IMG/VR virus record: IMGVR_UViG_2603880150_000003
Length of the DNA stretch: 21,318 nucleotides
Origin: a virus
Lineage: Duplodnaviria; Heunggongvirae; Uroviricota; Caudoviricetes
Strand: one strand, 5' to 3'
This document shows, piece by piece, positions 1 to 18,585 of this stretch; position 1 is the first letter of the stretch, and each line of letters opens with the position of its first letter. A model generated the notes under the pieces. It saw only the letters and a program-made list of their open reading frames with translations. It did not search any database and was not told the origin of the DNA. A program made the position numbers and the translations under genes.

Positions 1-222
1 TCAGTATCTCGATAAGCGCAGAGAAATGATGCAGTGGTGGGCGGATTGGCTTGATGAAAAAGTGGAGTAATCCGGACCGTACTTCTTTATCCAGGCATAA
101 AGGCTGTGGGTGGTGATATCGAGACGTGTTGCAACGCTGGCAACAGAATAACCGCGATCAATAACCTGTTTGACTGCTTCAGTTTTAAACTCTTCGGGAT
201 AACGCTTACCGCTCATGGGCAC
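1..222 (-). CDS. IS3-family transposase OrfA (HTH_Tnp_1-like N-terminal region), probably degenerate; stop codon at 1-3
   Basis: Translation MPMSGKRYPEEFKTEAVKQVIDRGYSVASVATRLDITTHSLYAWIKKYGPD matches the helix-turn-helix pattern of IS3-family OrfA proteins; the C-terminal 20 residues look unrelated, suggesting decay. Opposite orientation to the neighbouring IS fragment. Confidence 0.55.
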   Translation of the reverse strand: MPMSGKRYPEEFKTEAVKQVIDRGYSVASVATRLDITTHSLYAWIKKYGPDYSTFSSSQSAHHCIISLRLSRY

Positions 223-264
223 CTCTCTTTAAGCCATCTTAAATGACTCTGAGGTGTCTGTTAA

Positions 265-732
265 ACCCGTGGCGATTCAAAACTGCGTGTTACGTTCGCC
301 CTGGACTGTTGCGATCGTGAAGCCATAGACTGGGCCGCAAGCACGGGAGGTTACGATAAAGCGACAGTGCAGGATGTCATGTTAGGAGCGATAGAAAAAC
401 GCTTTGGCGATAAAGTACCGGAACAGTCCATCCAGTGGCTGACAGATAACGGTTCAGCGTATAGAGCGCATGAAACACGGCAGTTCGCCAGAGAGTTGAA
501 TCTGGAGCCCTGCACAACGGCAATCAGCAGTCCTCAGAGTAATGGAATGGCAGAAAGGTTCGTGAAAACGATGAAGGAAGACTACATCGCGTTCATGCCG
601 AAACCGAATGTAAGAACAGCATTGCATAATCTTGCAGTGGCGATCGAACATTACAATGAAAACCATCCGCACAGTGCGCTGGGTTATCGATCTCCGCGAG
701 AATATCGACGTCAGCGGGTAACGTTAACTTAA
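265..732 (+). pseudogene. IS2-like (IS3 family) transposase OrfB, C-terminal DDE-domain fragment
   Basis: In-frame translation from about 265 (..[82 protein letters not shown]) resembles the C-terminal catalytic region of IS2 InsD as I recall it; the N-terminal two thirds are missing, apparently cut off by the adjacent IS fragment. Confidence 0.6.
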
Positions 733-769
733 GATACACCCCCTGTCTGGAAATAAGGGGGCAAGAACA
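265..769 (+). mobile_element. Truncated IS2-like element, right end retained (terminal inverted repeat about 741-769)
   Basis: Sequence after the OrfB stop (..ccctgtctggaaataagggggcaagaaca) resembles the IS2 right terminal repeat (GTCTGGAAATATAGGGGCAAATCCA from memory) and ends in CA directly before the stop codon of the regulator gene at 774. Confidence 0.5.
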
Positions 770-773
770 ATGA

Positions 774-1526
774 TCAGATTCCCTGGTGAGTAAGAATTTT
801 ACTTTCTGAACTCCTCTGAGAGTATTGACTTGGAGAAACACCAAAATAACGTCTAAATACATAAGTAAAGTATGAGACACTGGCATAACCACAGACCTTA
901 GCTACTTTACTAATAGGATAACAACGAGTGCTGAGTAAATATTCAGCCATTTGCATCCTCTCATCAAGTATGATCTTACTGAATGATACCCCCTCTTCTT
1001 TCAATTTCCTCTTTAGTAAACTTTCGCTGAGATATAATCTTGATGATATATCCTTAAGACGCCATGGTGCAGATAAATCCGTATGAATAATCGTTTTAAC
1101 TTTAGCCCCTGTGCTTTTCAAACATTCAAACAGAAATACTCCAAATTGTTTTTCAGAAGAAAATGCAGAGAGACATGTAAAAGCAATAGACTCATCAAAA
1201 ATTTCTATGTATTCAGCACAGTGATTAGCCCAACTAATTAATCCTTTAATTAAACTGAAGTCAGCAAAGTTTATTTTTAAATAAGATGGATATTCCCTAC
1301 AATCAGAAATATCCCTTAAGTTATTAGCTTTCAAATAGCGACTAATAAACTCAGCGCCAAAATCCGCCACTATCACTCTTTCAGGATATGTCAGGAAAAA
1401 ATCTCTAGAGCTAGAGTCGACAAGTACAGATGAACCTCTCTCCAGAAACACACTCTCTTTTCCGAAATAAACATCAAAGGACTCCAAAATCAATATAACT
1501 GAACATGTAGTTGCCATATCATCCAC
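774..1526 (-). CDS. AraC/XylS-family transcriptional regulator (AppY/YdeO/GadX-like), low-GC gene
   Basis: 250-aa ORF; C-terminal region (..WRLKDISSRLYLSESLLKRKLKEEGVSFSKIILDERMQMAEYLL..CGYASVSYFTYVFRRYFGVSPSQY) has the double HTH signature of AraC-family regulators and resembles YdeO/AppY. Markedly AT-rich relative to the prophage genes. Confidence 0.8.
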   Translation of the reverse strand: MDDMATTCSVILILESFDVYFGKESVFLERGSSVLVDSSSRDFFLTYPERVIVADFGAEFISRYLKANNLRDISDCREYPSYLKINFADFSLIKGLISWANHCAEYIEIFDESIAFTCLSAFSSEKQFGVFLFECLKSTGAKVKTIIHTDLSAPWRLKDISSRLYLSESLLKRKLKEEGVSFSKIILDERMQMAEYLLSTRCYPISKVAKVCGYASVSYFTYVFRRYFGVSPSQYSQRSSESKILTHQGI

Positions 1527-2101
1527 CCAACTTAACTGAAACCAGGATGAAGTATATGCATATAAAGTTCACTTTGCCAAACTTCAGTATAAAAAACCAC
1601 ATAAAAAATAGGGTGTGATAAAAAACACCGTAACAATAAAGCAAAGGATTATAAATTCCGTTACAGTTACAAATGATACTCAAGAAACAATTCCTTAGGA
1701 AAAACTTATTTACAGCCAATAAGTAAGACACTTATATGATATCAAGTTTTCATAAAACATAACTAGGCTAAATAGCTGCGCCTAATACCGCTACACTTTT
1801 GCCAGCCCATATTTGCCTCCGGGTATTGACCCCTTCTCTACGCAACTTCAGTTCCCACCACCAACTTTGCGGCAGCTTTGTAGGATCAATGTCTAAAAGA
1901 ATAATGGTGACCGATAAGAAAACGACTGAATAACTGCAAATTTTCGCTCAAAACCTTCCTGTCAGATCCATAGCGAATCAAGTGCTGAATGTCACAGTAT
2001 CAAACAGAAAACAGTGACGATCTAACTCTTCAAGAATATTCTACGATTGTTCTGTTTAGGAAAAGCAAGGCGGGAAGTCGGGAGATAAGTCATTGATAAA
2101 G

Positions 2102-2163
2102 TGGCGGAGAGAGGGGGATTTGAACCCCCGGTAGAGTTGCCCCTACTCCGGTTTTCGAGACCG
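2102..2163 (-). other. Orphan 62-nt 3' fragment of tRNA-Ser(CGA) (serU-type), likely att-site remnant
   Basis: Reverse complement CGGTCTCGAAAACCGGAGTAGGGGCAACTCTACCGGGGGTTCAAATCCCCCTCTCTCCGCCA matches the 3' 62 nt of E. coli tRNA-Ser(CGA) including the CCA end; the match stops abruptly inside the anticodon stem, so no complete tRNA is present. Confidence 0.8.
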
Positions 2164-2906
2164 ATGATACAGAGTCGAAAAATCAAAGAGTTAAAAATTT
2201 TTCTTGGAATAAATGTCTTAAAATCGTACACGAAAAATCAATGAATTACATAACATTAAAGAAGAATATTCCAAGCCTTCTTGATGCTACCACCTGTTTT
2301 CAGGTGTCATTCAGACGTGATTTGCCCCAGATTGGGAAAGCACGCTTTTTTCTCAGCTATCGTCCTCTTATTTTGCCGTTACATTTCTTTTTGCACTCTA
2401 ATGATTAATTTACAATAATAATATCGGTAATTATTGAGTAATAATAAATTGATTATTGCAAATGTAATTTAATTCCATCTTCGCGTTATATTCCAATCTT
2501 TAATCTCCGCATGGAACAAGTTGCATGCGTGACTATATTAAGACAACTTATAACCACCAAAACATTTGCTTTGCAAGCAAAAACAGTGACCATTGACTCT
2601 AAGAAAATTCCGATCTATTGTTAGGGTCATCAAAGTTACTTAACAGTATTCCGAAATGAAAATACAAAGCAAGCTAATTGTCTTATTAAACATTATCATT
2701 GCATTTATATTATTTGAGCTTTTAGCTCAAAAATTTGGTTTGAGTACATTATTTTAAAGCAAGATAAACAATATCGGGCACTCTAGTTTTTATAATTAAC
2801 AATTAAACGTCCATAAAATGTTATTTACTTTTCTTCGCTATTGTCATATCTTAATATAGTGGCTTACGCCACTCTACTTTCATCACATTTTGTACGTTTA
2901 TGTACT

Positions 2907-2939
2907 CGCCATGAAGCTCTTTCATGGCGATTTTTTATT
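2907..2939 (+). terminator. Candidate intrinsic terminator (9-bp stem cgccatgaa/ttcatggcg, loop gctct, then attttttatt)
   Basis: Perfect inverted repeat followed by a T-run on the + strand, inside AT-rich non-coding DNA between the tRNA fragment and tfa. Confidence 0.3.
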
Positions 2940-3022
2940 CTTAATCCAAGAACATACTCCTTACCTATAGCAAAATCACTTTTTGAACAAAAGAATAACG
3001 TATTTAGGTAATCATTACGAAT

Positions 3023-3604
3023 TTACCCTATAGGTGCTACTGGCCATTCAATATCCGGTGCAGTTGTTGTATTAACACGGTTCAGCAACACCCGATACTT
3101 CTTCCAGGCTTCCAGCAACGAGGTTTCTTCCTCCGTTGCAATTTCCAGATCTGCAGCATCCTGAAGCGGCGCAATATGCTCACTGGCTACCTGCATCAGG
3201 CTGTTTTTTGTTTCTTCCGCCTCCCGGATCCGGAACAGTTTTTCTGCTTCTGCATCTTTCACCCAGGCTGTGCCGTTCCACTTCTGATATTCCCCTCCCG
3301 GCGACAACCAGGTAACATTTTCCGGTAACGGACCGAGTTCAGAAATAAATAACGCGTCGCCGGAAGCCACGTCATAAACCGTTTTACCCCGATGGTCTTC
3401 AACGAGATGCCACGATGCCTCATCACTGTTGAAAACAGCCACAAAGCCAGCAGGAATATCTGGTGGTGCAATATCGGTACTGTTTGCTGGCAGACCTGTA
3501 TGAGGCGGAATATATGCGTCACCTTCACCAATAAATTCATTAGTTCCGGCCAGCAGATTATAAATTTTTATGGTCCGTGGTTGTTCACTCATTCTGAATG
3601 CCAT
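3023..3604 (-). CDS. tfa: Tail fiber assembly protein Tfa (lambda Tfa-like)
   Basis: 193-aa translation [51 protein letters not shown].. is near-identical to lambda Tfa as recalled; start overlaps the stf stop by 1 nt. Confidence 0.9.
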
Positions 3605-6600
3605 TATGCAAGCCTCACAATATAGTTAAATGCGATGTTTTTGACGGTGTTTTCCGCGTTACCCGCAGCGTTAACGGTGATGGTATGTCCATGTGAGCCA
3701 ATCGCAACGGAGTGCGTATGAGCACCAATACCGACAGTATGTGCATGTGCGCCTGCGCTTGCAGCAGTGCCGGACAGCGAGTGGGTATGAGCACCATCTG
3801 ATGATGTCTTCCCTGCATTACGAGTCTGGCCACTACCGCTTGTTGTGCTCATAATCCCCGCGCTTAGATTTGAAATCGCAGTATAACCATTAGGAAAAAT
3901 GCTCGTGTTCGTGCCACCAAATGCACCGGAACTCTTGTGTTGGTGCGCACCGGCACTATTTGCTGTCCCGCTAATACTATGGGTATGTGCACCAGTGTTA
4001 TTCGTGGATTTGGTTCCGTAATCAAACGACGATGTGGTTTTCGTCCCCAAATCCGTACTGGATGCGCTGGCGCTGTGGGTGTGCGATTTAATGCCGTCCT
4101 GTTCCTGAGACAATACGGCACGACCACTGGCGGGCTTGCCCTTAATCGTCCAGCCACGCATATCAGGGATCACGCCTGACGGATAAGCAACTGCAAGTTT
4201 CGGGTATGCAGATTTGTCAAAAGTCTGCCCCTGCATCAGGGCATAGCCAGACGGAACGGTATCTGATGGCCACGGGATTGGTGCGCCGACTGGATAAAAC
4301 TCTGCAGGAGGATGAGCCGAGGTGTAAAGCTGCGCCCACGGCGACCAGTTTGCGTCGATCGTATCCCGTCGTGAACGAATAAATGCCGGAGCATGAGCAC
4401 CGCTTGTACCACTCCAGCCGATGAGTAACTCACCTTCGCCAACGGCTGTCATCCCTTTCAGGTGAATGATATTTCCATACGCTGTTGGATATCCGTTGTT
4501 ATACACCTCGTATAACTCAAGACCTGTTGCCCCCTGCGTATTGTCTGTCAGCGCGGTTACCCGACCTTTTGAAGCCAGATTAACTGATGATACTGCTGTT
4601 CCACCTGACGGTAATGCCCCAATCTCTGATGCCGTTGGCTTATTTCTGGAGTTATAGTCCCTTCGCCAGCCAGGTGAATAATCTGTTCCGTGATTAATAT
4701 AGGTAAACTGGGCGTTAGTTGTTCCACCACCAGTGGAGGTGGTCGGTGTGGTAATGCGGATCGTCATCGCTGACTTTATCCCCATTACTTCAATGACAGC
4801 TCCGGCGAGATGAATATTACCGCAGCCAGTATCAGTAATGATTTTATTATTGCCATAAGACCAGGAACCCTTGCACATCCAGTATGGATGGTTAAATGCT
4901 CCCTGAGAATCCAGCCACTCGATAAACTGTGCAGTCGTCCAGTTTCCTGTTGTTGTGCTTACTGACCCACCGAAGGCACGGCAGGCACCAATATTTTTCG
5001 TAAAGGTGTCTTTGCCAGGGATATCCGCACCGTTCTGATCTTTCTGCAGACGTTTCTCAGCATTGTCATTGGCTGCTTTTACTGCCTTTGGCGTTGCCGC
5101 CAGCGTTTCAGACGTGCTGTTGGTCGCGCTGCTTAGCTGGATTATCCCTTTCTGTGCTGTCGTTGCATCCTGTGCGGTGTATTTCCCGTTAGCCAGGTCA
5201 TACGCGGCCTTAACGGCTTTTGGTGTTGCCGCCAGTGACTCGGAAGTGCTGTTAGTCGCACTACTGAGCTGTACTATCCCCTTTTTCGTCGTGCTCGCAT
5301 CCTCAAGCGCCACGGCGGATGCAATATCCTCTGCCCGTTTTGCCGCTGTCTCAGCGCGCGTTGCTGCAGATTCCGCCGTACTTTTGCTCTGAGCTGCTGC
5401 CGTCGCACTACCAGCAGCCTCTGTCGCCTTCGTGGATGCCGTCGTGGCGCTGCCCTTCGCTGCTGACGCCTGTCTGGTCGCCTCATCTTTTGAAGCAGAC
5501 GCCGATGATGCCGATGACGCCGCCGAACTGGCGGACGATGCCGCTGCCGTTTTTGAGGATTCTGCACGGGTTTCCGAGGCTTTCGCGTTCGTTTCGGATG
5601 TCATCGCTGCGGATGCAGACCTCGCTGCTGCGCTGGCCTGTTCAGCGGCTTCGCCAGCCTTCGTTGTGGCTGTTGAAGCGGATGATGCGGCGCTTTCGGC
5701 CGATTTTCCGGCTGCGGTGGCACTGACTGAGGCCTGCCCGGCACTTGTTGACGCGGCACTGGCAGACGACGCAGCCGCTGTTTTTGAGCCTGCCGCAGCT
5801 GAGGCGCTCTGTCCCGCTGCCGTCTCAGAAGACCTGGCGTTCGTCTCGGACGTTTTTGCCGCCTTCGCGGAATTTCCTGCCGCCGTTGCCGAGGAAGCGG
5901 CACTACTGGCGCTTGATGATGCGTTCGTTTCTGATGATTTTGCCGCTTCTTTTGAGGCCGCCGCATCCCGGGCCGAGGTCGCAGCTTCTGATGCCTTCGT
6001 GGTCGCGGTGGATGCAGATGTGGCTGCTGATTGTTGTGACGCTGAAGCATTCGTTTCTGACGTTTTCGCCGCACCGGCACTGGTGGCCGCCGCGCTTTTT
6101 GAGGACTCTGCAGCGGCAGCACTTTTTGATGCTTCAGTGGCCTTTGTTGATGCCGTTCCTGCGCTGGAAGACGCTGACTGAGCCGACGACGCGGCCTGTC
6201 CGGCTGACGTGCTGGCTGCGCGTGCTGAGTCCGCAGCATCAGCCGCATGGGTTGCCGCCTCACGGGCTGATGTGCTGGCATCACTGGCTGACTTCTTCGC
6301 GGCTGCCGTGTTCTGTGCCACCGCGGACGCGTTACGCGCCACCTCTTCCACCATCAGTTCAAAACGGCGCAGTGCCTCAGGACGGGCATCATCCTCCGTC
6401 ATGGCACCGAGAAAATCATTCAGCGTACCGGGTTGAGAATCTTCATACACGGTGATGGTCCCGGCATGTGACGGCGGGAATCCTTCCACCAACAGAATAA
6501 CGCTGTACTGACCGTACTCCACATCCATGCTGTAACGCCCGGCTTCATCCGGATTCTCTGAGCCCACCGTGTTCACCACCACCGTGGTGCTGTTACGTCT

Positions 6601-6684
6601 GGCTTTCAGCTGAATGGTGCAGTTCTGTACCGGTTTTCCTGTGCCGTCTTTCAGGACTCCTGAAATCTTTACTGCCATATTCAC
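3604..6684 (-). CDS. stf: Side tail fiber protein Stf (StfR/lambda Stf-like), 1026 aa, with long Ala/Ser/Thr-rich region
   Basis: N-terminus [64 protein letters not shown].. matches Rac/lambda side tail fibers; contains tandem [27 protein letters not shown] motifs and a C-terminal His-rich GAHTHSxSGTA repeat region. Confidence 0.9.
5085..5290 (-). repeat. Tandem ~120-bp repeat inside stf encoding the duplicated SATNSTSE(S/T)[11 protein letters not shown] motif
   Basis: Two near-identical DNA blocks (about 5085-5165 and 5205-5285) are visible on the + strand; both translate on the - strand to the conserved tail-fiber motif. Confidence 0.6.
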
Positions 6685-6689
6685 CCCAC

Positions 6690-6715
6690 AAAAAAGCCCA
6701 CCGGTTCCGGCGGGC
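6690..6715 (-). terminator. Candidate intrinsic terminator between the lom remnant and stf
   Basis: Hairpin gcccacc..ggcgggc followed on the - strand by UUUUUU (the + strand shows aaaaaa at 6690-6695 before the stem). Confidence 0.4.
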
Positions 6716-6742
6716 TGTCATAACACTGTGTTACCTGGCTAA

Positions 6743-8353
6743 TCAGAATTTATAACCGACCCCAACGATGAATCCGTCAGTACGCCAGTCGCCACTGCCG
6801 GAGCCTTCATAAGCAATATCAACAACGACGGACGCTGCCGGATTAATCTGTATACCTGCACTCCACGCCACTGAGGTATGCCGCATTGCACTTTCGTCCC
6901 TGGCGGTGGTCGTCTCTTTCATATAGCCGGATGCATCATCACTCGGCTGACCAACAGCCTCCACGAATGCCGATTTGCCAACGGTGTTCACACTGCGAAC
7001 GTAAAAATAATAATCATAGCCCGGCCTGATATTGATACTGGCGGCTATCCAGTACAGCCCCGTGCCAAGGTAGCGGGCTGTGGTTTCAACCTGCCTGATA
7101 TCGGTAATCCGCTTTTCCGAGAACCAGAACTCAAACTGTACCGTCGGGTCATAAACGGCAAGATGCGGCGTGGCGGTTATCTGAAAATAGCCCGGCGTCA
7201 GCTCAATCCTCGACGGTGCTGCCGGTGCGGCAATCCGGAACGATACCGACGCCGGATCTCCCTGCTGCCCCCACGCATTTACCGCCCGGACTGTCAGCCT
7301 GTAGTTCCCCAGCGCCAGTTGCGTGAAGCGGTATGTGGTTTCCGTCGTCCGGGCCGTGCTGACCAGCCGCTCACTGCCGTCGTCCGCTGTTACGGTCAGA
7401 CGGAGCAGGAAGCTCACGCCCTTCACCACCTTCGGTGTGTCCCAGCGCGCCAGCACCTGATATTCCCCGCTGTCTGCAGTGACTTCTGCGGTCAGGTGCT
7501 GCACCGCTGGCGGCGTGACACCGTTCACCGTGCCACTCTGTTCGCCGTCAAAGTGCGCCCCGTTATCCACGATGGCCTCTTTTTCCGGCACATGCTGCAC
7601 GGCGGTGATGGCATACGTACCGTCATCGTTCTCACGGATACTCACACAGCGGAACAGGCGCTGGCGCAGCGTCGGCAGCTTCAGCCCCCACACGCTGTAT
7701 TCGGCAACGCCGTCAGGAACACGGCTCACTTTCACCTTAAGTCCGTCGGTGACGGACTGAACCTCCACGCTGACCGGATTACCACTTCCGTCAACCAGGC
7801 TTATCAGCGTGGTACCGGAGGATGGCAGCGTGATTTCACGGTCGAGCGTCAGCGTCCGGGTCTGGCTGTTCACCGCCAGCACGCGACCACCGGTGCTGAT
7901 ACCGGCATAGTCATCATCGCAGATTTCAATGACATCGCCCGGTACATGGCGAAGCCCTTCAGCACCCACGCTGAAATCCACGGTCTGCGTCTCCAGCAGT
8001 TCCGTTTTAATCAGCCACAGCCCGGCGCGGTGTGCCTGCCCCCGGCTGGTACAGCCAAAGGCATCCATCTTCGTGACATTACGACCGTAACGGGCAATGG
8101 CCTGCGTATCTTCAACAAGCTCTGTCGCCGTCTCCCAGCCGTTGTCCGGGTCAATCCAGTTCACCTCAACGGCATTATGGCGGTCCTTCAGGGCGCTGAA
8201 GCTGTAGCGGAACGGCGCGCCATCATCCGGCATCACCACATTACTGCGGTTATAGGTCCACACCTTATCCGACGGTCGGTCCTGCACGAACGTCAGCGTC
8301 TGCCCGTTCCATACCGGCATACAGCGCATCGCCGAGCAGAAATCACTGAGCAC
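6743..8353 (-). pseudogene. Tail tip/host-specificity protein J, central fragment, fused in frame to the C-terminal ~59 codons of lom
   Basis: Translation from [19 protein letters not shown].. through ..[20 protein letters not shown] matches the central part of lambda gpJ; the last 59 aa ([59 protein letters not shown]) match the Lom C-terminus with the Ail/Lom/PagC beta-barrel terminal signature. The J N-terminus and C-terminal receptor-binding domain are absent. Confidence 0.75.
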
Positions 8354-8888
8354 ATCCCACGCCTTGCGCTGTGTGGTCAGGTATCAGTTCATCCAGCGCG
8401 GCTGCTTTGTTCATGGCTTTGATGATATCCCGTTTCAGGAAATCAACATGTCGGTTTTCCAGTTCCGGAAAACGCCGCTGCACCGACAGGGGGATCCCGT
8501 CGAGAATACTGGCAATTTCACCTGCGATCCGCGACAGCACGAAAGTACAGAATGCGGTTTCCACCACTTCAGCGGAGTCTCTGGCATTTTTCAGCTCCTG
8601 TGCGTCGGCCTGCGCACGCGTAAGTCGATGGCGTTCGTACTCAATAGTCCCTGGCTGGAGATCTGTCTCGCTGGCCTGCCGCAGTTCTTCAACTTCCCGG
8701 CGCAGCTTTTCGTTCTCAATTTCAGCATCCCTTTCGGCATACCATCTTATAACGGCGGCAGAGTCATAAAGCACCTCATTACCCTTGCCACCGCCTCGCA
8801 GAACGGGCATTCCCTGTTCCTGCCAGTTCTGAATGGTACGGATACTCGCACCGAAAATGTCAGCCAGCTGCTTTTTGTTGACTTCCAT
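8343..8888 (-). pseudogene. nu1: Terminase small subunit Nu1 (NohD-like), C-terminally truncated at a deletion junction
   Basis: MEVNKKQLADIFGASIRTIQNWQEQGMPVLRGGGKGNEVLYD.. matches lambda Nu1 up to ..[10 protein letters not shown], then diverges ([11 protein letters not shown]) where the sequence enters the J reading frame. Confidence 0.8.
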
Positions 8889-9065
8889 TGTTCATTCCAC
8901 GGACAAAAACAGAGAAAGGAAACGACAGAGGCCAAAAAGCTCGCTTTCAGCACCTGTCGCTTCCTTTCTTTTCAGAGGGTATTTTAAATAAAAACATTAA
9001 GTTATGACGAAGAAGAACGGAAACGCCTTAAACCGGAAAATTTTCATAAATAGCGAAAACCCGCG

Positions 9066-9077
9066 AGGTCGCCGCCC
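9066..9077 (-). other. cosN cohesive-end site (GGGCGGCGACCT) with adjacent cosB-like region toward nu1
   Basis: Reverse complement of 9001-9090 reproduces the remembered lambda left end GGGCGGCGACCTCGCGGGTTTTCGCTATTTATGAAAATTTTCCGGTTTAAGGCG.. preceded by ..CCGACAGGTTACG, the lambda right end. Confidence 0.8.
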
Positions 9078-9276
9078 CGTAACCTGTCGGATCGCCGGAA
9101 AGGACCCGCAAAATGATAATAATTATCATCTGCATGTCACAACGTGCATCTACGCCATCAAACCACGTCAAATAATCAATTATGACGCAGGTATCATATT
9201 AATTGATCTGCATCAACTTAACGTAAAAACAACTTCAGACAATACAAATCAGCGACACTGAATACGGGACAACCTC

Positions 9277-9471
9277 ATGTCAACGAAGAACAGAACCCGC
9301 AGAACAACAACCCGCAACATCCGCTTTCCTAACCAAATGATTGAACAAATTAACATCGCTCTTGAGCAAAAAGGGTCCGGGAATTTCTCAGCCTGGGTCA
9401 TTGAAGCCTGCCGTCGGAGACTAACGTCAGAAAAGAGAGCATATACATCAATCCAGAGTGATGATGAATAA
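9277..9471 (+). CDS. Small prophage protein, YlcI-like (DUF3950-type), 64 aa
   Basis: ORF MSTKNRTRRTTTRNIRFPNQMIEQINIALEQKGSGNFSAWVIEACRRRLTSEKRAYTSIQSDDE; position between cos and bor corresponds to ylcI in DLP12-like prophages. Family assignment is from memory. Confidence 0.5.
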   Translation: MSTKNRTRRTTTRNIRFPNQMIEQINIALEQKGSGNFSAWVIEACRRRLTSEKRAYTSIQSDDE

Positions 9472-9708
9472 ACATCCCGGTTTCTTCCACCATCGCACCG
9501 GAAAAGCGACTATGAGGGTAACCCTGCGTCTGTCAGCACAGTAAAACCCGGTGTGCATCGTTTTTGATTATTCCCGCACACTCACGCAGAAGGAATTCCC
9601 CGTCGGGCTACGGTCATGGTTAATGCGGGAATACGGCGACGATACAGCGCAGCTAAAAGGGTAATGGACAGAAAGAGCGGTTTATTTCATTCCACAGGAT
9701 TCTGAGTG

Positions 9709-9718
9709 CCCCCCCCCC
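9709..9718. repeat. Homopolymeric C10 tract (G10 on the - strand) about 115 bp upstream of bor
   Basis: Directly counted: positions 9709-9718 are ten consecutive C residues, followed by tcctcc. Confidence 0.9.
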
Positions 9719-9834
9719 TCCTCCAATAGGCTGAGCATCCACCTATATAGTTTTAATTTTCATCAATCCATTTAACTATCGTTTAATTGTTGTCACATAG
9801 GATTCTGCCGTTTTTAACAATGCAGGATAATAAG

Positions 9835-10128
9835 ATGAAAAAAATGTTGTTTTCTGCCGCTCTGGCAATGCTTATTACAGGATGTGCTCAACAGACGTTT
9901 ACTGTTGGAAACAAACCGACAGCAGTAACACCAAAGGAAACCATCACCCATCATTTCTTCGTTTCGGGAATTGGACAGGAGAAAACTGTTGATGCAGCCA
10001 AAATTTGTGGCGGCGCAGAAAATGTTGTTAAAACAGAAACCCAGCAAACATTCGTAAATGGATTTCTCGGTTTTATTACTTTAGGCATTTATACTCCGCT
10101 GGAAGCGCGTGTGTATTGCTCACAATAA
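9835..10128 (+). CDS. bor: Bor lipoprotein (serum-resistance moron)
   Basis: MKKMLFSAALAMLITGCAQQTFTVGNKPTAVTPKETITHHFFVSGIGQEKTVDAAKICGGAENVVKTETQQTFVNGFLGFITLGIYTPLEARVYCSQ matches lambda Bor; lipobox LITGC; antisense to the lysis genes as in lambda. Confidence 0.85.
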   Translation: MKKMLFSAALAMLITGCAQQTFTVGNKPTAVTPKETITHHFFVSGIGQEKTVDAAKICGGAENVVKTETQQTFVNGFLGFITLGIYTPLEARVYCSQ

Positions 10129-10159
10129 TTGCATGAGTTGCCCATAGATATGGGCAGCT

Positions 10160-10621
10160 CTATCTGCACTGCTCATTAATATACTTCTGGGTTCCTTCCA
10201 GTTGTTTTTGCATAGTAATCAGCCTCTCTCTGAGGGTGAAATAATCCCGTTCAGCGGTGTCTGCCAGTCGGGGGGAGGCTGCATTATCCACGCCGGAGGC
10301 GGTGGTGGCTTCACGCACTGACTGACAGACTGCTTTGATGTGCAACCGACGACGACCAGCGGCAACATCATCACGCAGAGCATCATTTTCAGCTTTCGCA
10401 TCAGCTAACTCCTTCGTGTATTTTGCATCGAGCGCAGCAACATCACGCTGACGCATCTGCATGTCAGTAATTGCCGCGTTCGCCAGCTTCAGTTCTCTGG
10501 CATTTTTGTCGCGCTGGGCTTTGTAGGTAATGGCGTTATCACGGTAATGATTAACAGCCCATGACAGGCCGACGATGATGCAGATAACCAGAGCGGAGAT
10601 AATCGCGGTTACTCTGTTCAT
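10160..10621 (-). CDS. Rz: Spanin inner-membrane subunit Rz
   Basis: [85 protein letters not shown].. matches lambda Rz; ATGA overlap with the R stop. The listed ORF starts 4 codons earlier. Confidence 0.85.
10219..10401 (-). CDS. Rz1: Spanin outer-membrane lipoprotein Rz1, embedded in Rz in the +1 frame
   Basis: [60 protein letters not shown]: lipobox VVGC and proline-rich segment as in lambda Rz1. Confidence 0.75.
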
Positions 10622-11115
10622 TGCTGACCCCACAAACAGATTTCACGCTCAATCTCACGACGAGTCATGAGACCTTTCCATTGCTTACCGCCAGCATATG
10701 TCCAGCGACGTAGCTGATCACATGCGCCTTTAATATCACCCTGGTTTATTTTGCGAAGAAGCGTCGATGTTCTGAAATTGCCAGCACCCACGTTGTAGAC
10801 GAACGAGTAAAGAGCGCCGCGCGTTGTTTCCGGTATATCGACTTTGATGTACGGGTTAATTTGTCTGGCGACAGTGGCAAGGTCTTTATTCAGGAGGGCT
10901 TTGCACTCTGCTTCGGTATACGTTTTACCGGGAATGATGTCTTTTCCTGTATGCCCGTGACATACAGTCCATACACCAACTATGTCTTTGTAAGGATTAT
11001 GTCTCACACCTTCCAGACCATCGTTACCACTTGGGCCAGTGATTAATACAGATGCTATAGCAATAGCCCCGCCACCAATAGCAGCAGCAACAGCTTTTCG
11101 TAATGATGGAGGCAT
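10618..11115 (-). CDS. R: SAR endolysin (phage 21 R / RrrD-type lysozyme)
   Basis: 165 aa with N-terminal signal-anchor-release-like hydrophobic segment ([20 protein letters not shown]) and lysozyme-like core; unlike lambda R transglycosylase; follows the holin with overlapping stop/start. Confidence 0.85.
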
Positions 11116-11330
11116 TATCCACCTCTCGCAGCCTTGCGCTTATCTTCTTTAATCTTGAAATAAAGGTTTGTCAGGTACGTCAGCAGGCCAAATACCAGGC
11201 TACCCAGCACTCCAATTGCCGCCCACTGTGAGGGCGTGACTTTATCTAGCAGCTGTAAAAACCAGTACCCGGCACTACCTGCTGAGGTGCCATAGGCGAC
11301 ACCCGTTGTTAACTTATCCATGGATTTCAT
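11115..11330 (-). CDS. S: Holin, phage 21 S-type pinholin (EssD-like)
   Basis: 71 aa [71 protein letters not shown]; two TM segments and a charged C-terminus, matching S21. Confidence 0.85.
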
Positions 11331-11453
11331 AACCCCACCTCGCAGACAAAGCGGGTGTAAATTGAGGGAATACTACGAAACGTAACAGACTCGGAGTCAG
11401 TGAATAACTCAGGTATTGGGTTATCAGCTAATATCGAGACTCAAAAAATGGAA

Positions 11454-11475
11454 AAACCCGCTCGACGGCGGGTTT
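11454..11475 (-). terminator. Candidate hairpin/terminator upstream of S on the late strand
   Basis: Inverted repeat aaacccgc/gcgggttt with 6-nt loop; on the - strand the stem is followed by a short U-run. Weak. Confidence 0.3.
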
Positions 11476-11902
11476 AAGCTGTGTGACGAAGTAACCACTC
11501 TTAACAGCATAACCAATTTTTTACGTACGTAAACCACTAAATGATATTTGCGAGAATGCTACCGAGTATTGAAAACACCACTACAAATACATAAGAAAAT
11601 CTCAACAAATAACCAACAAATAATTTCCAGTGTTATTTTTAGCCGGTTTAAATTGAACCTTCAAATTATAGAGCACTTATAAATAACAGCCGTTAATATA
11701 AATTGGCTAACAGATTTATTTTTATTCAGCCAAGAGCCATGAATAGGATTCGATAGAAAAAAGTTCAGATAAAAATAGAGATCTACTTCACAAATCAAAC
11801 GAGAAACCAAAACTTACATCTTGAAATAATCACATTGATTAGATGAATATTTATCGCGCAGTGACATCATTTTTTAATAATAGTTCAAAAAAAGGGCTCA
11901 CG

Positions 11903-13000
11903 ATGAAAAAATTAACAGTGGCAATTTCTGCTGTAGCTGCATCAGTACTGATGGCGATGTCTGCTCAGGCAGCTGAAATTTATAATAAAGACAGTAACAA
12001 GCTGGATCTGTACGGGAAAGTTAATGCTAAGCACTACTTCTCCTCTAATGATGCAGATGATGGTGATACTACTTATGCCCGTCTTGGCTTCAAAGGTGAA
12101 ACCCAAATCAACGATCAACTGACTGGTTTCGGTCAGTGGGAATATGAATTCAAAGGCAACCGCGCTGAATCTCAAGGCTCCTCCAAAGACAAAACCCGTC
12201 TTGCATTTGCAGGCCTGAAATTCGGTGACTACGGCTCCATCGATTACGGCCGTAACTACGGTGTAGCATACGACATCGGCGCGTGGACTGACGTCCTGCC
12301 AGAATTCGGTGGTGACACTTGGACTCAAACCGACGTGTTCATGACTCAACGTGCAACTGGTGTTGCAACCTATCGTAACAACGACTTCTTTGGTCTGGTT
12401 GATGGTCTGAACTTTGCTGCTCAGTACCAAGGCAAAAACGATCGTAGCGATTTCGATAACTACACTGAAGGTAACGGTGATGGCTTCGGTTTCTCTGCTA
12501 CCTATGAATACGAAGGATTCGGTATCGGTGCAACTTATGCGAAATCTGATCGTACCGACACTCAAGTTAATGCAGGGAAAATTCTTCCTGAAGTATTTGC
12601 TTCCGGTAAAAATGCAGAAGTTTGGGCCGCAGGTCTGAAATATGACGCTAACAACATTTACCTGGCCACTACCTATTCTGAAACCCAGAATATGACTGTA
12701 TTTGCTGATCACTTCGTTGCTAATAAAGCCCAAAACTTCGAAGCTGTTGCACAATATCAGTTCGATTTCGGTCTGCGTCCGTCCGTTGCTTACCTGCAAT
12801 CTAAAGGTAAGGATCTTGGAGTATGGGGCGATCAGGACTTAGTCAAATATGTTGATGTAGGTGCAACCTATTACTTCAACAAAAATATGTCTACTTTCGT
12901 TGATTACAAAATCAACCTGCTTGACAAAAATGACTTCACTAAAGCACTCAGTGTAAGCACTGATGACATCGTTGCTGTAGGTCTGGTTTACCAGTTCTAA
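11903..13000 (+). CDS. nmpC: Outer membrane porin NmpC/OmpD/Lc (OmpC family), apparently intact
   Basis: [23 protein letters not shown] signal peptide, then [23 protein letters not shown].. and C-terminal ..VAVGLVYQF, the general-porin signature; SD aaaggg upstream. The listed ORF starts 20 codons upstream but 11903 fits the signal peptide. Convergent with Q, as for nmpC in DLP12. Confidence 0.9.
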
Positions 13001-13016
13001 TCTGATTACGAAAAAG

Positions 13017-13050
13017 ATATGTTGCGGGAGGCTTTGCCTCCCCAACATAT
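13017..13050 (-). terminator. Strong hairpin just after the nmpC stop; on the - strand followed by aucuuuuucg (candidate late-strand terminator, possibly tR')
   Basis: About 15-bp stem (atatgttgcgggaggc / gcctccccaacatat, one bulge) with ttt loop; rc of 13008-13016 gives a U-run after the stem on the - strand. Confidence 0.4.
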
Positions 13051-13137
13051 AAGTGGCTCCCTCAAGCCACTTCCTTTAGGAGCACAACCTTGCTTCTAAC
13101 TATATAAACCTTCTGTTATATATTACCCTTTATTTTT

Positions 13138-13162
13138 GGGGGCGTTGCAACGCCCCATTTTT
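13138..13162 (+). terminator. Intrinsic terminator for nmpC
   Basis: Perfect palindrome gggggcgttgcaacgcccc followed by atttttaataattttt on the + strand. Confidence 0.55.
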
Positions 13163-13189
13163 AATAATTTTTAGTAAACAACTGGCATA

Positions 13190-13573
13190 TTAATTAGAGT
13201 TATTAACAACGATATCCATCTCTAACCGGATATCTAATGCCATTAACATCCCTTCAATTATGCCCTCAGCCTTCTGTAACCTTTTCCCGATATAACCATC
13301 AGAGCAGCAATGCTTACCTGCCAGTGACATGAATGTCATACCGACTACATAATAATCTACTAATAAATCGTGCAAATCGCTGTTGTTCTTTTTCAGACGG
13401 GCCATGCACCCGCAAATAATCATCGCGTCATCGTCACAACATTGCGGGCGAGATTTTACTTTTGAAGTAATTAATCCCTTAAAACCGGCGGCAATGGACG
13501 ACCAGGTCACATCTTCATGATTATTAGCCGCCCACGCTCCCCAACGCTCAAGAACCATCTGAATATCACGCAT
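13190..13573 (-). CDS. Late-gene antiterminator Q (QuuD / phage-82-type Q-like), 127 aa
   Basis: [62 protein letters not shown].. with Cys-rich motif; sits between rusA and the lysis genes; SD GGAG precedes the MRDIQ start (the listed ORF begins at an upstream TTG). Confidence 0.8.
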
Positions 13574-13658
13574 CAACTTACTCCACAAAAATCAGACCAG
13601 AACGCCAATTACAAGCAAAAATCAACAAAACAGTATTAGTTGATTGTTATCTCTGACT

Positions 13659-13796
13659 TCATACTCCTGCTCCTGTCAGGGTTTTGGCGTAATTCTTCAG
13701 TATTCGGTAATCGGTCAAAACAGAACCAGGAAAACGATATAAGCGCAGGCGCATCCAGCGGTGGCGAAGACGTTCTGCCACATAAAACTCAAACAT
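13659..13796 (-). CDS. Small ORF (45 aa), YlcG-like by position between rusA and Q
   Basis: ATG overlaps the rusA stop (TGATG); translation [45 protein letters not shown]. Below the ORF-track length cutoff; identity inferred from synteny only. Confidence 0.4.
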   Translation of the reverse strand: MFEFYVAERLRHRWMRLRLYRFPGSVLTDYRILKNYAKTLTGAGV

Positions 13797-14158
13797 CATT
13801 CATTCCCCATTTCGGTGATGGTCAGTTCCAGCCTCCCACCTTTGGTAACAGGCATCTTCACAACGCGGTAATCAACGACCTGAGCATCATCCAGCCAGAA
13901 ACCTGCTTTAGTGAGTGCGTCAAAAGCGGCTTTTTGCAGATTATCCAGGTCACGGCGACGGCGATCCGGCATGTGGCACTCAATGCGGATTTTCACAGGG
14001 ATAGCCAGGCCGATATCCAGCATTGCGTTTTTAATGATTCTGGCGACGTTATCGCGGTATGCCTGCCCCTCTGCGCTGACGTGCGTGCGCCCGCGATTAT
14101 GGCGGTAATAGCGATTATTGCTCGGAGGCCAGGGTAATGTGATGCTGTAGGTATTCAC
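13796..14158 (-). CDS. rusA: Holliday junction resolvase RusA
   Basis: [120 protein letters not shown] matches RusA; GTG start. Confidence 0.9.
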
Positions 14159-14364
14159 GCCTTAATAATCCCCTCTTTCAGCCACATAACCTGTGTTTTC
14201 GCCATACCTTCCAGCGCGCATTCTTTTGCATATGCAGCATCGACTTGCTTGGCATGCCCTTTACCGGCAATCTTCTGTATGCGCTAAACCTAGATAGAAT
14301 CCACTCTGTGCACATTGAAGCCCGCTCTATGCTTCCTTTCAGGTATTGAAGGGATTGAGATGGG
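14156..14364 (-). pseudogene. ybcO-like (DUF1364) gene remnant, frameshifted/internally deleted
   Basis: The last ~40 codons (..[29 protein letters not shown]) match the YbcO C-terminus and its stop overlaps the rusA start, but upstream the frame is broken by stops and the space between ninX and rusA (~207 bp) is too short for a full gene. Confidence 0.5.
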
Positions 14365-14712
14365 CTAAGCATTATTGGCCTCCTGCATCAGGAGAAAGAC
14401 AATCATGGCGGCGCGGAGAGGTCTGGTATCAAATATTGGGCTTACGCCTTTTGCATCCACACACCATTCAGTTAACTGGTCTAAGATAGAAATCCTGTAT
14501 TTCTCAATAATCGGCCATGAAGCGCTCGGATCATTGCAGTAATCAGGCAAATGATTTAATGGCTCAAAAGTTGTATCAGCATTTCCGTAATACCATTTGT
14601 TGGTGTTATTCCCTGATGTTTCCGGTTTACTTGCCCAAAGGCCTTTAAAAATTATGTCTCCTACCATTCTGTTAATTTCAAAATCACTTAACTGTGAATA
14701 ATCCATTGTCAT
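14365..14712 (-). CDS. nin-region protein, NinX/DUF2591-like (family name from memory)
   Basis: [34 protein letters not shown]..; ATGA overlap with the ninE stop at 14709-14712 supports this start rather than the upstream one in the ORF track. Confidence 0.6.
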
Positions 14713-14885
14713 TTCCTCGCACGATATCTTAGCCACCGGATATCCCACAGGTGAGCTGTGTAATTGAAGGTTTTTACGTCAGATTCTTTTGGGATTGGCT
14801 TGCGTTTATTTCTGGAGCGTTTCGTTGGAAGGTATTTGCAGTTTTCGCAGATGATGTCGGTGAAACTTCGTCGCTGTCGCCTCAT
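14709..14885 (-). CDS. ninE: NinE
   Basis: 58 aa [58 protein letters not shown] resembles lambda/DLP12 NinE; ATGA overlap with the upstream Dam fragment stop. Confidence 0.75.
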
Positions 14886-15229
14886 GCCGCCCTCCTGACG
14901 CCCTGCCCGATCGCCATCAATGCCGCTTTGGATACGGTAGTAAACATCCGTCGAGGACTGATGAACAGTCGCCAAATCAGCAGCATGGAGCCTTTGCTGT
15001 TTTCCTTCTTCTCCAACCCTGTCGATGGTTCGATAAAATTAATCCGTCCATCAGTGATAATGCGAACTTCGTCGACACTCTCCAGAGCCTTGCTGAACCA
15101 TCCGACTGACATATCCTCTGGCACAAGCATAACTACCGTCTGTCGCTGTTGTATGCACTGCTCAGCGGCTTTTTCCACCCACGGCCTGATATTGCTGTAC
15201 GGTGGGTTATTCCAGATTGCACCGTGGCT
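14882..15229 (-). pseudogene. Phage Dam-type N6-adenine DNA methyltransferase, 3' fragment (contains the NPPY motif)
   Basis: Minus-strand translation from 15229: [71 protein letters not shown]..; catalytic NPPY motif present, no N-terminal domain; an in-frame stop lies immediately upstream (15230-15232). Confidence 0.7.
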
Positions 15230-15230
15230 T

Positions 15231-15542
15231 TACGAGTATTGCCGGAAGCGAGGCCTGTATCCGGATGCGGAGTCTTATCCGTGGAAATCAAACGCGCACT
15301 ACTGGCTGGTTACCAACCTGTATCAGAACATGCGGGCCAATGCGCTTACTGATGCGGAATTACGGCGCAAGGCTGCCGATGAACTGACCTGTATGACAGC
15401 GCGAATTAACCGTGGTGAGACGATACCTGAACCAGTAAAACAACTTCCTGTTATGGGCGGTAGACCTCTAAATCGTGCACAGGCTCTGGCGAAGATCGCA
15501 GAAATTAAAGCTAAGTTCGGACTGAAAGGAGCAAGTGTATGA
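15231..15542 (+). pseudogene. P: Replication protein P, C-terminal ~104 codons only
   Basis: YEYCRKRGLYPDAESYPWKSNAHYWLVTNLYQNMRANALTDAELRRKAADELTCMTARINRGETIPEPVKQLPVMGGRPLNRAQALAKIAEIKAKFGLKGASV matches the lambda P C-terminus; the preceding 160 codons of the listed ORF are antisense to ninE/dam and unrelated to P. Confidence 0.8.
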
Positions 15543-15829
15543 CGGGCAAAGAGGCAATTATTCATTACCTGGGGACGCATAATAGCTTCTGTGCGCCGGA
15601 CGTTGCCGCGCTAACAGGCGCAACAGTAACCAGCATAAATCAGGCCGCGGCTAAAATGGCACGGGCAGGTCTTCTGGTTATCGAAGGTAAGGTCTGGCGA
15701 ACGGTGTATTACCGGTTTGCTACCAGGGAAGAACGGGAAGGAAAGATGAGCACGAACCTGATTTTTAAGGAGTGTCGCCAGAGTGCCGCGATGAAACGGG
15801 TATTGGCGGTATATAGAGTTAAAAGATGA
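15539..15829 (+). CDS. ren: Ren
   Basis: MTGKEAIIHYLGTHNSFCAPDVAALTGATVTSINQAAAKMARAGLLVIEGKVWRTVYYRFATREEREGKMSTNLIFKECRQSAAMKRVLAVYRVKR matches lambda Ren; ATGA overlap with the P stop. Confidence 0.85.
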   Translation: MTGKEAIIHYLGTHNSFCAPDVAALTGATVTSINQAAAKMARAGLLVIEGKVWRTVYYRFATREEREGKMSTNLIFKECRQSAAMKRVLAVYRVKR

Positions 15830-15902
15830 CCATCTATATTACTGAGCTAATAACAGGCCTGCTGGTAATCGCAGGCCTTTTTATTTGGGGGAGAGGGAAG
15901 TC

Positions 15903-16343: not shown

Positions 16344-16708
16344 CTATCAAATCAAATACGCCAGCACACGACAAGGACTGCTGGCAAACGCCGCTTTGGC
16401 TTTTTGATGCACTGGATATTGAGTTTGGATTCTGGCTGGATTCGGCAGCGAGCGACAAAAATGCTCTGTGTGCTCACTGGCTAACTGAGGCCGACGACGC
16501 GCTCAATTCTGAGTGGGTACACAAAGCATCTCCTGTTGAGTTAAGAACGAGTATTGAGATGGCACATAGCCTTGCTCAAATTGGAGTCAGGTTTGTGCCA
16601 ATACCAGTAGAAACAGACGAAGAATTTCATACGTTAGCCGCATCCCTTTCACAAAAGCTGGAAATGATGGTGGCGAAAGCAGAAGCAGATGAGAGAGACC
16701 AGGTATGA
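16340..16708 (+). pseudogene. Dam-type methyltransferase 5' fragment (62 codons, DCWQTP motif) fused in frame to an early-left small ORF (possibly lambda orf63-like)
   Basis: MTIKSNTPAHDKDCWQTPLWLFDALDIEFGFWLDSAASDKNALCAHWLTEADDALNSEWVH is the N-terminal half expected upstream of the NPPY fragment at 14882-15229; after His62 the sequence (KASPVELRTSIEMAHSLAQIG..) is unrelated to Dam. ATGA overlap with the ninB stop. Confidence 0.65.
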
Positions 16709-16784
16709 CAACCACTGAATGCATTTTTCTGGCAGCGGGCTTCATATTCTGTGTGCTTATGCTTGCCGACATGGGACTTGTTCA

Positions 16785-17000
16785 ATGACACCTCAGCAAG
16801 AAAACGCCCTTCGCAGTATTGCCCGTCAGGCTAATTCTGAAATCAAAAAAGCCAGACAGCAGTTTCCGGATAAAAACGTCGATGACATTTGCCGTAGCGT
16901 ACTGAAGAAGCACCGCGAAACGGTAACGCTGATGGGATTCACACCGACTCATTTAAGCCTGGCGATCGGCATGTTAAACGGCGTCTTTAAGGAGCGATGA
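16785..17000 (+). CDS. Small early-left ORF (71 aa), lambda orf61-region-like
   Basis: MTPQQENALRSIARQANSEIKKARQQFPDKNVDDICRSVLKKHRETVTLMGFTPTHLSLAIGMLNGVFKER; assigned by position upstream of the TraR-like ORF and ea22; start chosen at the internal Met of the listed ORF. Confidence 0.45.
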   Translation: MTPQQENALRSIARQANSEIKKARQQFPDKNVDDICRSVLKKHRETVTLMGFTPTHLSLAIGMLNGVFKER

Positions 17001-17098
17001 ACATGAAAAGCAAAATCATCAGGGAGCTACAGGCTCCTTTTTTATTATTCGCATTCACCCTCAAGCGTATTAACCAACAATTCAGGGATTAATGGAAG

Positions 17099-17320
17099 AT
17101 GGCAGACATCATTGATTCAGCATCAGAAATCGAAGAATTACAGCGCAATACAGCAATAAAAATGCGTCGTCTGAACCACCAGGTTATATCTGCCACTCAT
17201 TGTTGTGAGTGTGGCGATCCCATAGATGAGCGAAGACGCCTGGCCGTTCAGGGCTGTCGGACTTGTGCAAGTTGCCAGGAAGATCTGGAGCTTATCAGTA
17301 AACAGAGAGGTTCGAAGTGA
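17099..17320 (+). CDS. TraR/DksA-family C4 zinc-finger protein (lambda Orf73-like)
   Basis: 73 aa with CCECGDPIDERRRLAVQGCRTCASCQ four-Cys motif typical of TraR/DksA C4 zinc fingers; ATGA overlap with ea22. Confidence 0.65.
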   Translation: MADIIDSASEIEELQRNTAIKMRRLNHQVISATHCCECGDPIDERRRLAVQGCRTCASCQEDLELISKQRGSK

Positions 17321-17865
17321 GCGAAATTAACTCTCAGGCACTGCGTGAAGCGGCAGAGCAGGCAATGCATGACGACTGGGGATTTGACGCAGACCTTTTC
17401 CATGAATTGGTAACACCATCGATTGTGCTGGAACTGCTGGATGAACGGGAAAGAAACCAGCAATACATCAAACGCCGCGACCAGGAGAACGAGGATATTG
17501 CGCTAACAGTAGGGAAACTGCGTGTTGAGCTTGAAACAGCAAAATCAAAACTCAACGAGCAGCGTGAGTATTACGAAGGTGTTATCTCGGATGGGAGTAA
17601 GCGTATTGCTAAACTGGAAAGCAACGAAGTCCGTGAAGACGGAAACCAGTTTCTTGTTGTTCGCCATCCTGGGAAGACTCCTGTTATCAAGCACTGCACT
17701 GGTGACCTGGAAGAGTTTCTGCGGCAGTTAATCGAACAAGACCCGTTAGTAACTATCGACATCATTACGCATCGCTATTACGGGGTTGGAGGTCAATGGG
17801 TTCAGGATGCAGGTGAGTATCTGCATATGATGTCTGACGCTGGCATTCGCATCAAAGGAGAGTGA
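17317..17865 (+). CDS. ea22: Ea22
   Basis: 182-aa translation MSEINSQALREAAEQAMHDDWGFDADLFHELVTPSIVLELLDERERNQQYIKRRDQENEDIALTVGKLRVELETAKSKLNEQ.. matches lambda Ea22 as recalled, in lambda-like position. Confidence 0.8.
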   Translation: MSEINSQALREAAEQAMHDDWGFDADLFHELVTPSIVLELLDERERNQQYIKRRDQENEDIALTVGKLRVELETAKSKLNEQREYYEGVISDGSKRIAKLESNEVREDGNQFLVVRHPGKTPVIKHCTGDLEEFLRQLIEQDPLVTIDIITHRYYGVGGQWVQDAGEYLHMMSDAGIRIKGE

Positions 17866-18056
17866 GATCGGTTTTGTAAAAGATAACGCTTGTGAAAATG
17901 CTGAATTTCGCGTCGTCTTCACAGAGATGCCAGAGTCTGTAGTGTCAGATGATGACCGTACTCAAACATCGGGTTGAGTATTATCTTACTGTTTCTTTAC
18001 ATAAACATTGCTGATACCGTTTAGCTGAAACGACATACATTGCAAGGAGTTTATAA

Positions 18057-18338: not shown

Positions 18339-18413
18339 ACCCAATATTACATAACAATCCTCGCACTCGCGGGGATTTATTTTATCTGAACTCGCTACGG
18401 CGGGTTTTGTTTT

Positions 18414-18566: not shown

Positions 18567-18585
18567 AGAACTGAAAGAACACCAA

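Follow-up and report, generated by a model that had tools for sequence, protein, structure and literature searches.

Large deletions that leave cos and nu1 beside tail-fiber genes are a textbook trait of the cryptic prophages of Escherichia coli K-12, and microhomology-mediated illegitimate recombination, or slipped-strand deletion, is an established process in this species. Here we analyzed a deletion of this kind in a 21,318-nt stretch of DNA (IMG/VR record IMGVR_UViG_2603880150_000003; the whole stretch is referred to as the window), in which nu1, the gene of the small terminase subunit, is fused to the middle of the tail tip gene J. The fusion is the scar of a deletion in a defective lambda-type prophage, which occupies the lambda attachment site on the E. 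coli chromosome. The left end of the deletion, close to the 3' end of nu1, is shared by a series of other deletions. Positions are given either in the window or in lambda (NC_001416); nu1, J, lom, stf and tfa all lie on the minus strand, and a slash separates the two sides of a joint or cut.

The closest analogue of the window junction is found in the DLP12 prophage of REL606 (E. coli B/C; 551306–554657), where a "terminase small subunit" gene is followed by a 5'-truncated J. The two loci share the nu1 breakpoint at lambda 696–699 (TACC, at the end of ...CTGATACC), a TACC partner within J, and a Q-porin-lysis-bor/iss-ylcI-cos-nu1 block with 96.6% identity. Unlike in the window, J of REL606 resumes at lambda 16135, 351 bp earlier (GCTACC/CGAACACGG), and reaches its own end without a lom fragment, a different set of tail fiber genes follows, and the prophage sits between the ybcK-ybcM DLP12 genes and appY/ompT. 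The REL606-type junction is present in about 38 complete genomes, and the window-type junction in 3.

The first-pass annotation of the window had compared its junction with two prophages of K-12, and this analogy stands for one of them. In Qin, nohA breaks off close to its 3' terminus and continues out of frame into a tail fiber gene, with cos kept; it differs from the window in that the break lies at lambda 719 (20 bp further), the partner is inside stf (stfQ) and J is wholly lost. The analogy does not hold for K-12 DLP12: its morphogenetic genes were also removed in one large deletion downstream of cos-nu1, but there the deletion begins only past a full-length nohD, at lambda 1018 inside gene A (aaaD fragment), and tfa resumes at 22119. 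As in generic microhomology deletions, the joints considered here show direct repeats of 2–10 bp, no transposon or recombinase signature, and, in many relatives, several independent joints. Unlike what generic models predict, one end is re-used repeatedly and in a single orientation.

A blastn alignment against NC_001416 matched lambda 699..1 to window 8380..9077 at 98.6% identity, covering cos and nu1 codons 1–170, and lambda 17936..16486 to window 6933..8383 at 96.3%, covering J codons 328–811. Both alignments include the same four bases, TACC (plus-strand GGTA), and nothing lies between the flanks, which places the junction at 699/16486. The first-pass annotation had proposed such a deletion fusing nu1 to the middle of J and had suggested this alignment as the check; both the fusion, now resolved to codon 170 joined to J codon 328, and the loss of the head genes and most tail genes are borne out by it. 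The absent interval measures 15,786 bp (lambda 700–16485), less than the "roughly 17 kb" estimated previously. It comprises the last 11 nu1 codons, the genes A, W, B, C, nu3, D, E, FI, FII, Z, U, V, G, T, H, M, L, K and I, and the J N-terminus through codon 327. TACC occurs in both parental sequences (nu1 ...CTGATACC/GGGG and J ...GCGTACC/TGACC), and the joint contains neither an insertion sequence (IS) nor a recombinase site. Illegitimate, microhomology-mediated recombination via TACC joined nu1 at lambda 699 to J at lambda 16486.

The truncated Nu1 follows lambda Nu1 through ..AALDELIP, and its 11 C-terminal residues are replaced by aberrant ones because the joint brings nu1 and J together in different frames. 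This agrees with the earlier description of a protein that matches Nu1 up to ..DELIP and ends in 11 aberrant codons, and the interval 8343–8380 marked at the time is exactly the out-of-frame tail up to the breakpoint. A Pfam Phage_Nu1 hit (PF07471, E = 2.4e-101) aligned residues 1–164 with the entire profile (1–164 of 164). The second open reading frame (ORF), 6743..8353, overlaps the nu1' stop and carries the Pfam domains Phage-tail_3, Ig_J and Ig_J_second. A native start of this J-like ORF, which would have spoken for another origin, is absent, and the J frame simply runs on from the breakpoint. Gene A is wholly deleted and no gpA is encoded downstream, leaving the truncated Nu1 without its terminase partner in the element. 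The junction itself encodes nothing, and its effect is that the element is no longer able to make the large terminase subunit, capsids or tails.

The sequence of the window matches that of E. coli F3_13_1_3 (CP074754, 3184985–3206302) at 100% identity, and AH21 carries the same element apart from two IS3-family insertions. The same junction was found in three complete genomes (AH21, F3_13_1_3 and OY754353), in two IMG/VR contigs (L008, L012) and in one metagenome contig (L018). The element is flanked by ybhC and ybhB-bioA, which define the lambda attachment site, and a 356-aa integrase and an excisionase gene lie beside ybhC; it is therefore neither DLP12 nor Qin. The ybcK...appY-ompT neighborhood and the DLP12 integrase are missing. 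The late region is nevertheless of the DLP12 type, with quuD, porin, essD-rrrD-rzpD, bor/iss, ylcI, cos and nohD in the same order and 96.6% identity to REL606 DLP12 over 4.1 kb; the RefSeq names nohD, essD, rrrD, rzpD and quuD in this element were given by similarity only.

Other prophages at the same attachment site are decayed to a different extent. TUM1887 is less deleted and retains nohD, A, W, portal, U, a full-length J, lom and stf. IAL7255 shows another deletion pattern (nohD, A', C', D, E', stf' and tfa), and in ABW_A33 a truncated nohD is joined straight to cargo next to attR. Such less or differently decayed versions at one site establish that the window junction is a secondary loss. 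A sensor diguanylate cyclase gene is present as cargo next to attR in some of the prophages at the lambda attachment site (L021, which is ABW_A33, 11491–13417; L022), and in ABW_A33 and XJ6.2 nu1' abuts this cargo directly.

To collect the partners of the nu1 breakpoint, we looked in IMG/VR and JGI metagenomes for occurrences of GCGCTGGATGAACTGATACC in which the next base is not the wild-type G, and searched complete genomes with junction-spanning BLAST queries. At least 11 different deletions share a left end at lambda 694–699 (GATACC, corresponding to window 8380–8385), with right ends in A, J, stf, tfa and cargo; example loci are L002, L007, L011, L021, L083, L116, L123, L142, L144 and L145. 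Partner sites within gene A lie at lambda 1755 (strain 573; microhomology GATAC), 2177 (strain 300709 and 3 other genomes; TA) and 2244 (L007; TACC). Those within J lie at 15685 (17MR471; ATA), 15801 (L011; ACC, with TACC possible), 16135 (the REL606 type; TACC), 16486 (the window; TACC) and 17302 (52 complete genomes; GATA[A/C]CGGGG, 9/10). The remaining partners are an S74-type stf (L083; GATA), a cargo region (L123; GATA) and the last bases of tfa (ABW_A33, XJ6.2 and L015; TACC, from the parental CAGTACC/CATTATCG). Seven of the 11 types occur in complete genomes, about 101 in number, and the shared breakpoint spans at least three prophage contexts: the lambda attachment site, DLP12 and Qin-like. 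Three metagenome matches to the 20-mer (L016, L019, L020) had no lambda similarity and were apparently due to chance.

The clustering was also evident in an unbiased sample of 116 usable IMG/VR contigs, picked solely by a nu1 24-mer (lambda 647–670), 98 of which were lambda-collinear. Among the 17 distinct deletion types in this sample, four had their left end in lambda 694–703, compared with an expectation of 0.076 (Poisson P about 1e-6 for this interval taken as a pre-specified site). The remaining 13 types were singletons spread over lambda 720–2905.

The shared end is sharp and one-sided. Left ends fall at 697, 698 or 699, the microhomology is always terminal, and the cos-proximal side is kept in every type. 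Scans for the wild-type right flank following a foreign base, which would reveal the nu1 site as a right end, returned only a C699T single-nucleotide polymorphism (SNP). The behavior is tied to the nu1 side and persists after a change of the right flank, as between REL606 and L012. Several partners resemble the wild-type sequence GATACCGGGG past base 699 (GATAACGGGG, GATAC-GGG and TA..GGGG), and these deletions are therefore independent primary events that started from an intact nu1. The data fit a single top-strand 3' end nibbled by 0–2 nt. A DNA 3' end at lambda 697–699 would repeatedly prime joining by its terminal 2–5 bases (TACC, GATA, GATAC, ATA), and the primed joins would reach similar short sequences up to 21 kb downstream, with the cos side always retained.

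One locus, L007 (IMGVR_UViG_2585427776_000015, about 500–2300), carries several consecutive joints: nu1 699 is followed by A 2244–3468, then by lambda 4447–4495 and by tfa 22104, leaving a 49-bp island between two of them. This "moth-eaten" arrangement is suggestive of serial template switching. Lambda 1018 is another left end used more than once; it is joined to tfa 22119 in K-12 DLP12 (L013) and to stf 21370 in L047, both via TAT, and the right sites of these two joints are alike (TAT..GGCTGG). Another small cluster of left ends, at 719/720, consists of Qin and L069.

The history of the window junction itself could include one or two deletions. We lean slightly towards two steps passing through a REL606-type intermediate. 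The first step would be the nu1(699)/J(16135) deletion as in DLP12 of E. coli B/C. In the second, strand slippage between two imperfect direct repeats, TACCCGAACAC at that junction and TACCTGACCAC at J 16486, would delete 351 bp and leave the nu1 end unchanged. These two sequences form a 9/11 direct repeat, 351 bp apart, whereas wild-type nu1 shares TACC alone with J 16486. In L012, the window-type joint is flanked on both sides by sequence of the REL606 haplotype, over 700 bp on the nu1 side and over the first ~240 bp on the J side. Conversely, REL606-type junctions occur on window-like flanks: L010 carries the window's nu1 haplotype (0/510 mismatches), and L009 and L017 carry the window's first 100 bp of J (0 mismatches).

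A single 15.8-kb deletion between the two TACC copies of an intact nu1...J prophage at the lambda attachment site, independent of the REL606-type junction, is a serious contender that we place somewhat below even odds. The first 100 bp of the window's J' are identical to J of TUM1887 and show 2 differences from REL606, the window prophage and DLP12 occupy different attachment sites, and the nu1 site clearly supports independent primary events. The single-step scheme accounts less well for the extended 9/11 repeat at the REL606-type junction copy, where wild-type nu1 offers only TACC, and for L012, in which a REL606 haplotype did gain the window-type joint, as well as for the REL606-type junctions on window-like flanks. 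A tree of haplotypes was built from the 700 bp on the left side of the junction to count independent events; wild-type haplotypes and junction types were intermixed in it, and recombination in this region is too extensive for the events to be counted.

Taken as a whole, the explanation that combines the deletion scar, its proposed history and a hotspot in nu1 has, in our estimate, a probability of about 0.8; the narrower claim that the nu1 end is a real mechanistic hotspot also appears likely. Several points weigh against this explanation. The L007, L011, L083 and L123 types are known from draft-genome contigs only. For the window joint, the 4-bp microhomology is all that can be demonstrated, as the event was not observed, and the flanks recombine freely among lambdoid prophages, so that one- and two-step origins are not rigorously separable. 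The window's J fragment is closer to lambda (96.3%) and TUM1887 (95.7%) than to REL606 (94.9%). A search for a structural or sequence cause at the nu1 site found none. Folding of lambda 640–760 DNA gave z = 0.13 relative to shuffled sequences, providing no sign of a hairpin or quasi-palindrome. Resection by RecBCD limited by Chi (GCTGGTGG 4–6 nt 5' of the kept 3' end) was rejected: the nearest match is GCTGGATG (6/8, lambda 682–689), and no top-strand Chi with one mismatch or fewer occurs in lambda 1–964. As a general nuclease motif, GATACC also failed, since no junctions comparable to those in nu1 turned up in targeted scans of two further copies, at lambda 2265 and 3498. These scans indicate that the nu1 site is special and that the motif alone is insufficient.

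The motif is still enriched at deletion ends. GATACC/GGTATC was found at 5 of 46 distinct deletion-endpoint sites (background 1.1%, P = 1.5e-4), and GATA/TATC occurred within 9 nt of 17 of the 46 sites (background 10.7%, P = 3e-6; loci L004–L145). TAT/ATA was the commonest microhomology among the same loci, and some other GATACC or GATA-type copies show ends (2268, 2271, 3467–3469 and 3501).

Three further candidates do not account for the clustering. Selection for in-frame fusion fails, as none of the types places nu1 in frame with J. No IS was present at the breakpoint at any of about 145 loci. Type IIS (GGATG N9-10) and CCSGG/CCNGG restriction cuts would fit the position, but such sites are too frequent to produce a unique hotspot.

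A rather doubtful extension of the hotspot is that the nu1 3' end (lambda 694–703, GATACCGGGG, 12 bp before the start of gene A) might be a sequence-determined fragile site that one-sidedly triggers the loss of the head and tail genes. One possible cause of such fragility would be nicking at a cryptic site by terminase or some other nuclease.

A specific version of this idea, a site-specific nick or cut at lambda 699/700, for example by occasional nicking of a sequence resembling the left half of cosN by a lambdoid terminase (gpA), we regard as unlikely. The break would yield a DNA end whose unprotected right side is degraded, and the ends would then be joined at microhomology. Left ends at 697, 698 and 699 with terminal microhomology are what a fixed 3' end losing 0–2 nt would leave, the site is strictly one-sided, and many loci contain several further junctions, such as the 49-bp island of L007, fitting break-induced serial template switching. 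The sequence GATACC/GGGGTT matches the cosN N1 context of the window prophage itself, GTTACG/GGGCGG, at 7/12 positions, including GGG at +1 to +3, and the functionally critical half of cosN is the left one (PMC4669245). An infrequent nick by terminase at this position would supply just the 3' end that the joints call for. This match was found post hoc and is weak. Cells that express terminase are normally near lysis, other GATACC copies are not similarly hot, and we found no published secondary terminase site in nu1.

Clustering by selection, an improbable alternative, would mean that the deletions kept are those that retain Nu1 to about residue 170 and drop gene A's Shine-Dalgarno sequence (GGGG 700–703) and start codon (GTG 711), possibly because a cos-bound Nu1 without its gpA-binding tail hinders packaging by superinfecting lambdoid phages. 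The breakpoint does lie directly 5' of the ribosome-binding site of gene A, all types keep cos and nu1', and the truncated Nu1 has the whole Pfam Nu1 domain. Selection cannot account for the 3-nt sharpness, with no ends at 671–693 or 704–716, and stable joints downstream of the gene A start are frequent (719 and 1018 in K-12; also 720, 880, 1024, 1034 and 2271).

Site-specific recombination at pseudo-sites by lambda Int or a prophage Pin/Gin-type invertase is hardly credible and conflicts with the sequences of the joints. A fixed site with variable partners is the known pattern of Int-promoted deletions, and the center of the nu1 site, ACC-GG-GGTT, resembles the gix/hix center, ACC-GA-GGTT; however, partners share only 2–5 bp with the nu1 site without half-site symmetry, and the GG "core" is never retained in junctions. 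The GATA/GATAC-type ends are shifted by 1–2 nt (left ends 697–699), incompatible with a fixed staggered cut and religation, and the window has no invertase gene. Finally, an assembly artefact or a native mosaic boundary, for which only the abruptness of the joint speaks, has a negligible probability given the same junction in three complete genomes and three contigs, all independent of one another, lambda-collinear flanks at 96–99% identity, and intact relatives at the same locus.

The scar itself is ordinary, being a further case of a known deletion type, and the joint is already present in RefSeq, unremarked, in the form of partial J and Lom coding sequences. On its own it is a record of how one more lambdoid prophage was disabled; any wider weight would lie in the recurrent, one-sided and nucleotide-sharp breakpoint. 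A literature search found no description of this recurrent breakpoint, an absence that is no proof of novelty. Lambda is reported to recombine with DLP12 around cos/nu1, with nothing beyond that on the breakpoint (De Paepe et al. 2014, PMC3945230), and a Listeria TerI preprint proved unrelated. If a defined break in the DNA underlies the pattern, the decay of prophages in E. coli would be partly deterministic instead of random erosion. A fragile site would spare cos, nu1', the lysis genes and the cargo genes, and could be a preferred first domestication step of lambda-like prophages in this species. It would also explain why many cryptic lambdoid prophages keep cos and a small-terminase (noh) gene beside tail-fiber genes, and would offer a tractable, selectable system for the study of microhomology-mediated deletion in bacteria.

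The J–lom deletion, the P'-ren inversion with loss of the immunity region, and the recurrent nu1 breakpoint itself go beyond the first-pass annotation. The features surrounding the junction are listed in the table.

Table. Features of the prophage in and around the nu1–J junction (window positions; lambda positions refer to NC_001416).
Feature	Window position	Strand	Description
cos	9066..9110	-	intact; cosN GGGCGGCGACCT at 9077..9066, cosQ-like GGGTCCTTTCCGGCGATCCGACAGGTTACG before it; cosB after it, to the nu1 start
nu1' (RefSeq: nohD)	8343..8888	-	181 aa; Nu1 residues 1–170, 11 out-of-frame J-derived codons, stop
Deletion junction 1	8380..8383	-	TACC at lambda 696–699 (nu1) and lambda 16486–16489 (J); 700–16485 gone
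J' fragment	6933..8379	-	J codons 328–811, central domains of the tail tip protein; without native start
Deletion junction 2	6930..6933	-	J (lambda 17936, codon 811) joined in frame to lom (lambda 19398, Lom residue 145)
'lom fragment	6743..6929	-	last 62 Lom residues, ending the chimeric ORF 6743..8353; Pfam Ail_Lom profile 138–199 of 199
stf, side tail fiber	3604..6684	-	intact, 1026 aa; phage_tail_N, Phage_fiber_2, Collar
tfa, tail fiber assembly	3023..3604	-	intact, 193 aa; Caudo_TAP

The second deletion removes lambda 17937–19397 (1,461 bp); the J match stops at window 6933 and lom resumes at 6930, with 2 bases between them. In the annotation of AH21, J is accordingly labeled as "missing N- and C-terminus" and Ail/Lom as "missing N-terminus". 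The element retains cos, nu1', the lysis cassette, porin, iss/bor, the J'-'Lom chimera, and intact stf and tfa. The prophage is thoroughly dead, and so is the J'-'Lom chimera. The cosQ-cosN-cosB region is intact in this dead prophage (lambda position 1 corresponds to window 9077), and terminase supplied by a lambdoid helper could therefore still cut the chromosomal site and package DNA from it.

In the early region, P'-ren (window 15225–15807) is inverted with respect to TUM1887, and red, N, cI, cro, O and the immunity region are absent. The inverted segment P'-ren-ninB-dam' spans about window 14750–16710, with one breakpoint within the adenine-methyltransferase gene. The two adjacent IS3-family insertions of AH21 (L003 7781–10287, window about 17900–18600) lie between xis and an ea22-like gene. 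The prophage porin gene (nmpC/ompC-like; window 11843–13000, plus strand) is intact in the window; an IS5 interrupts it in K-12, and an IS1 in REL606.

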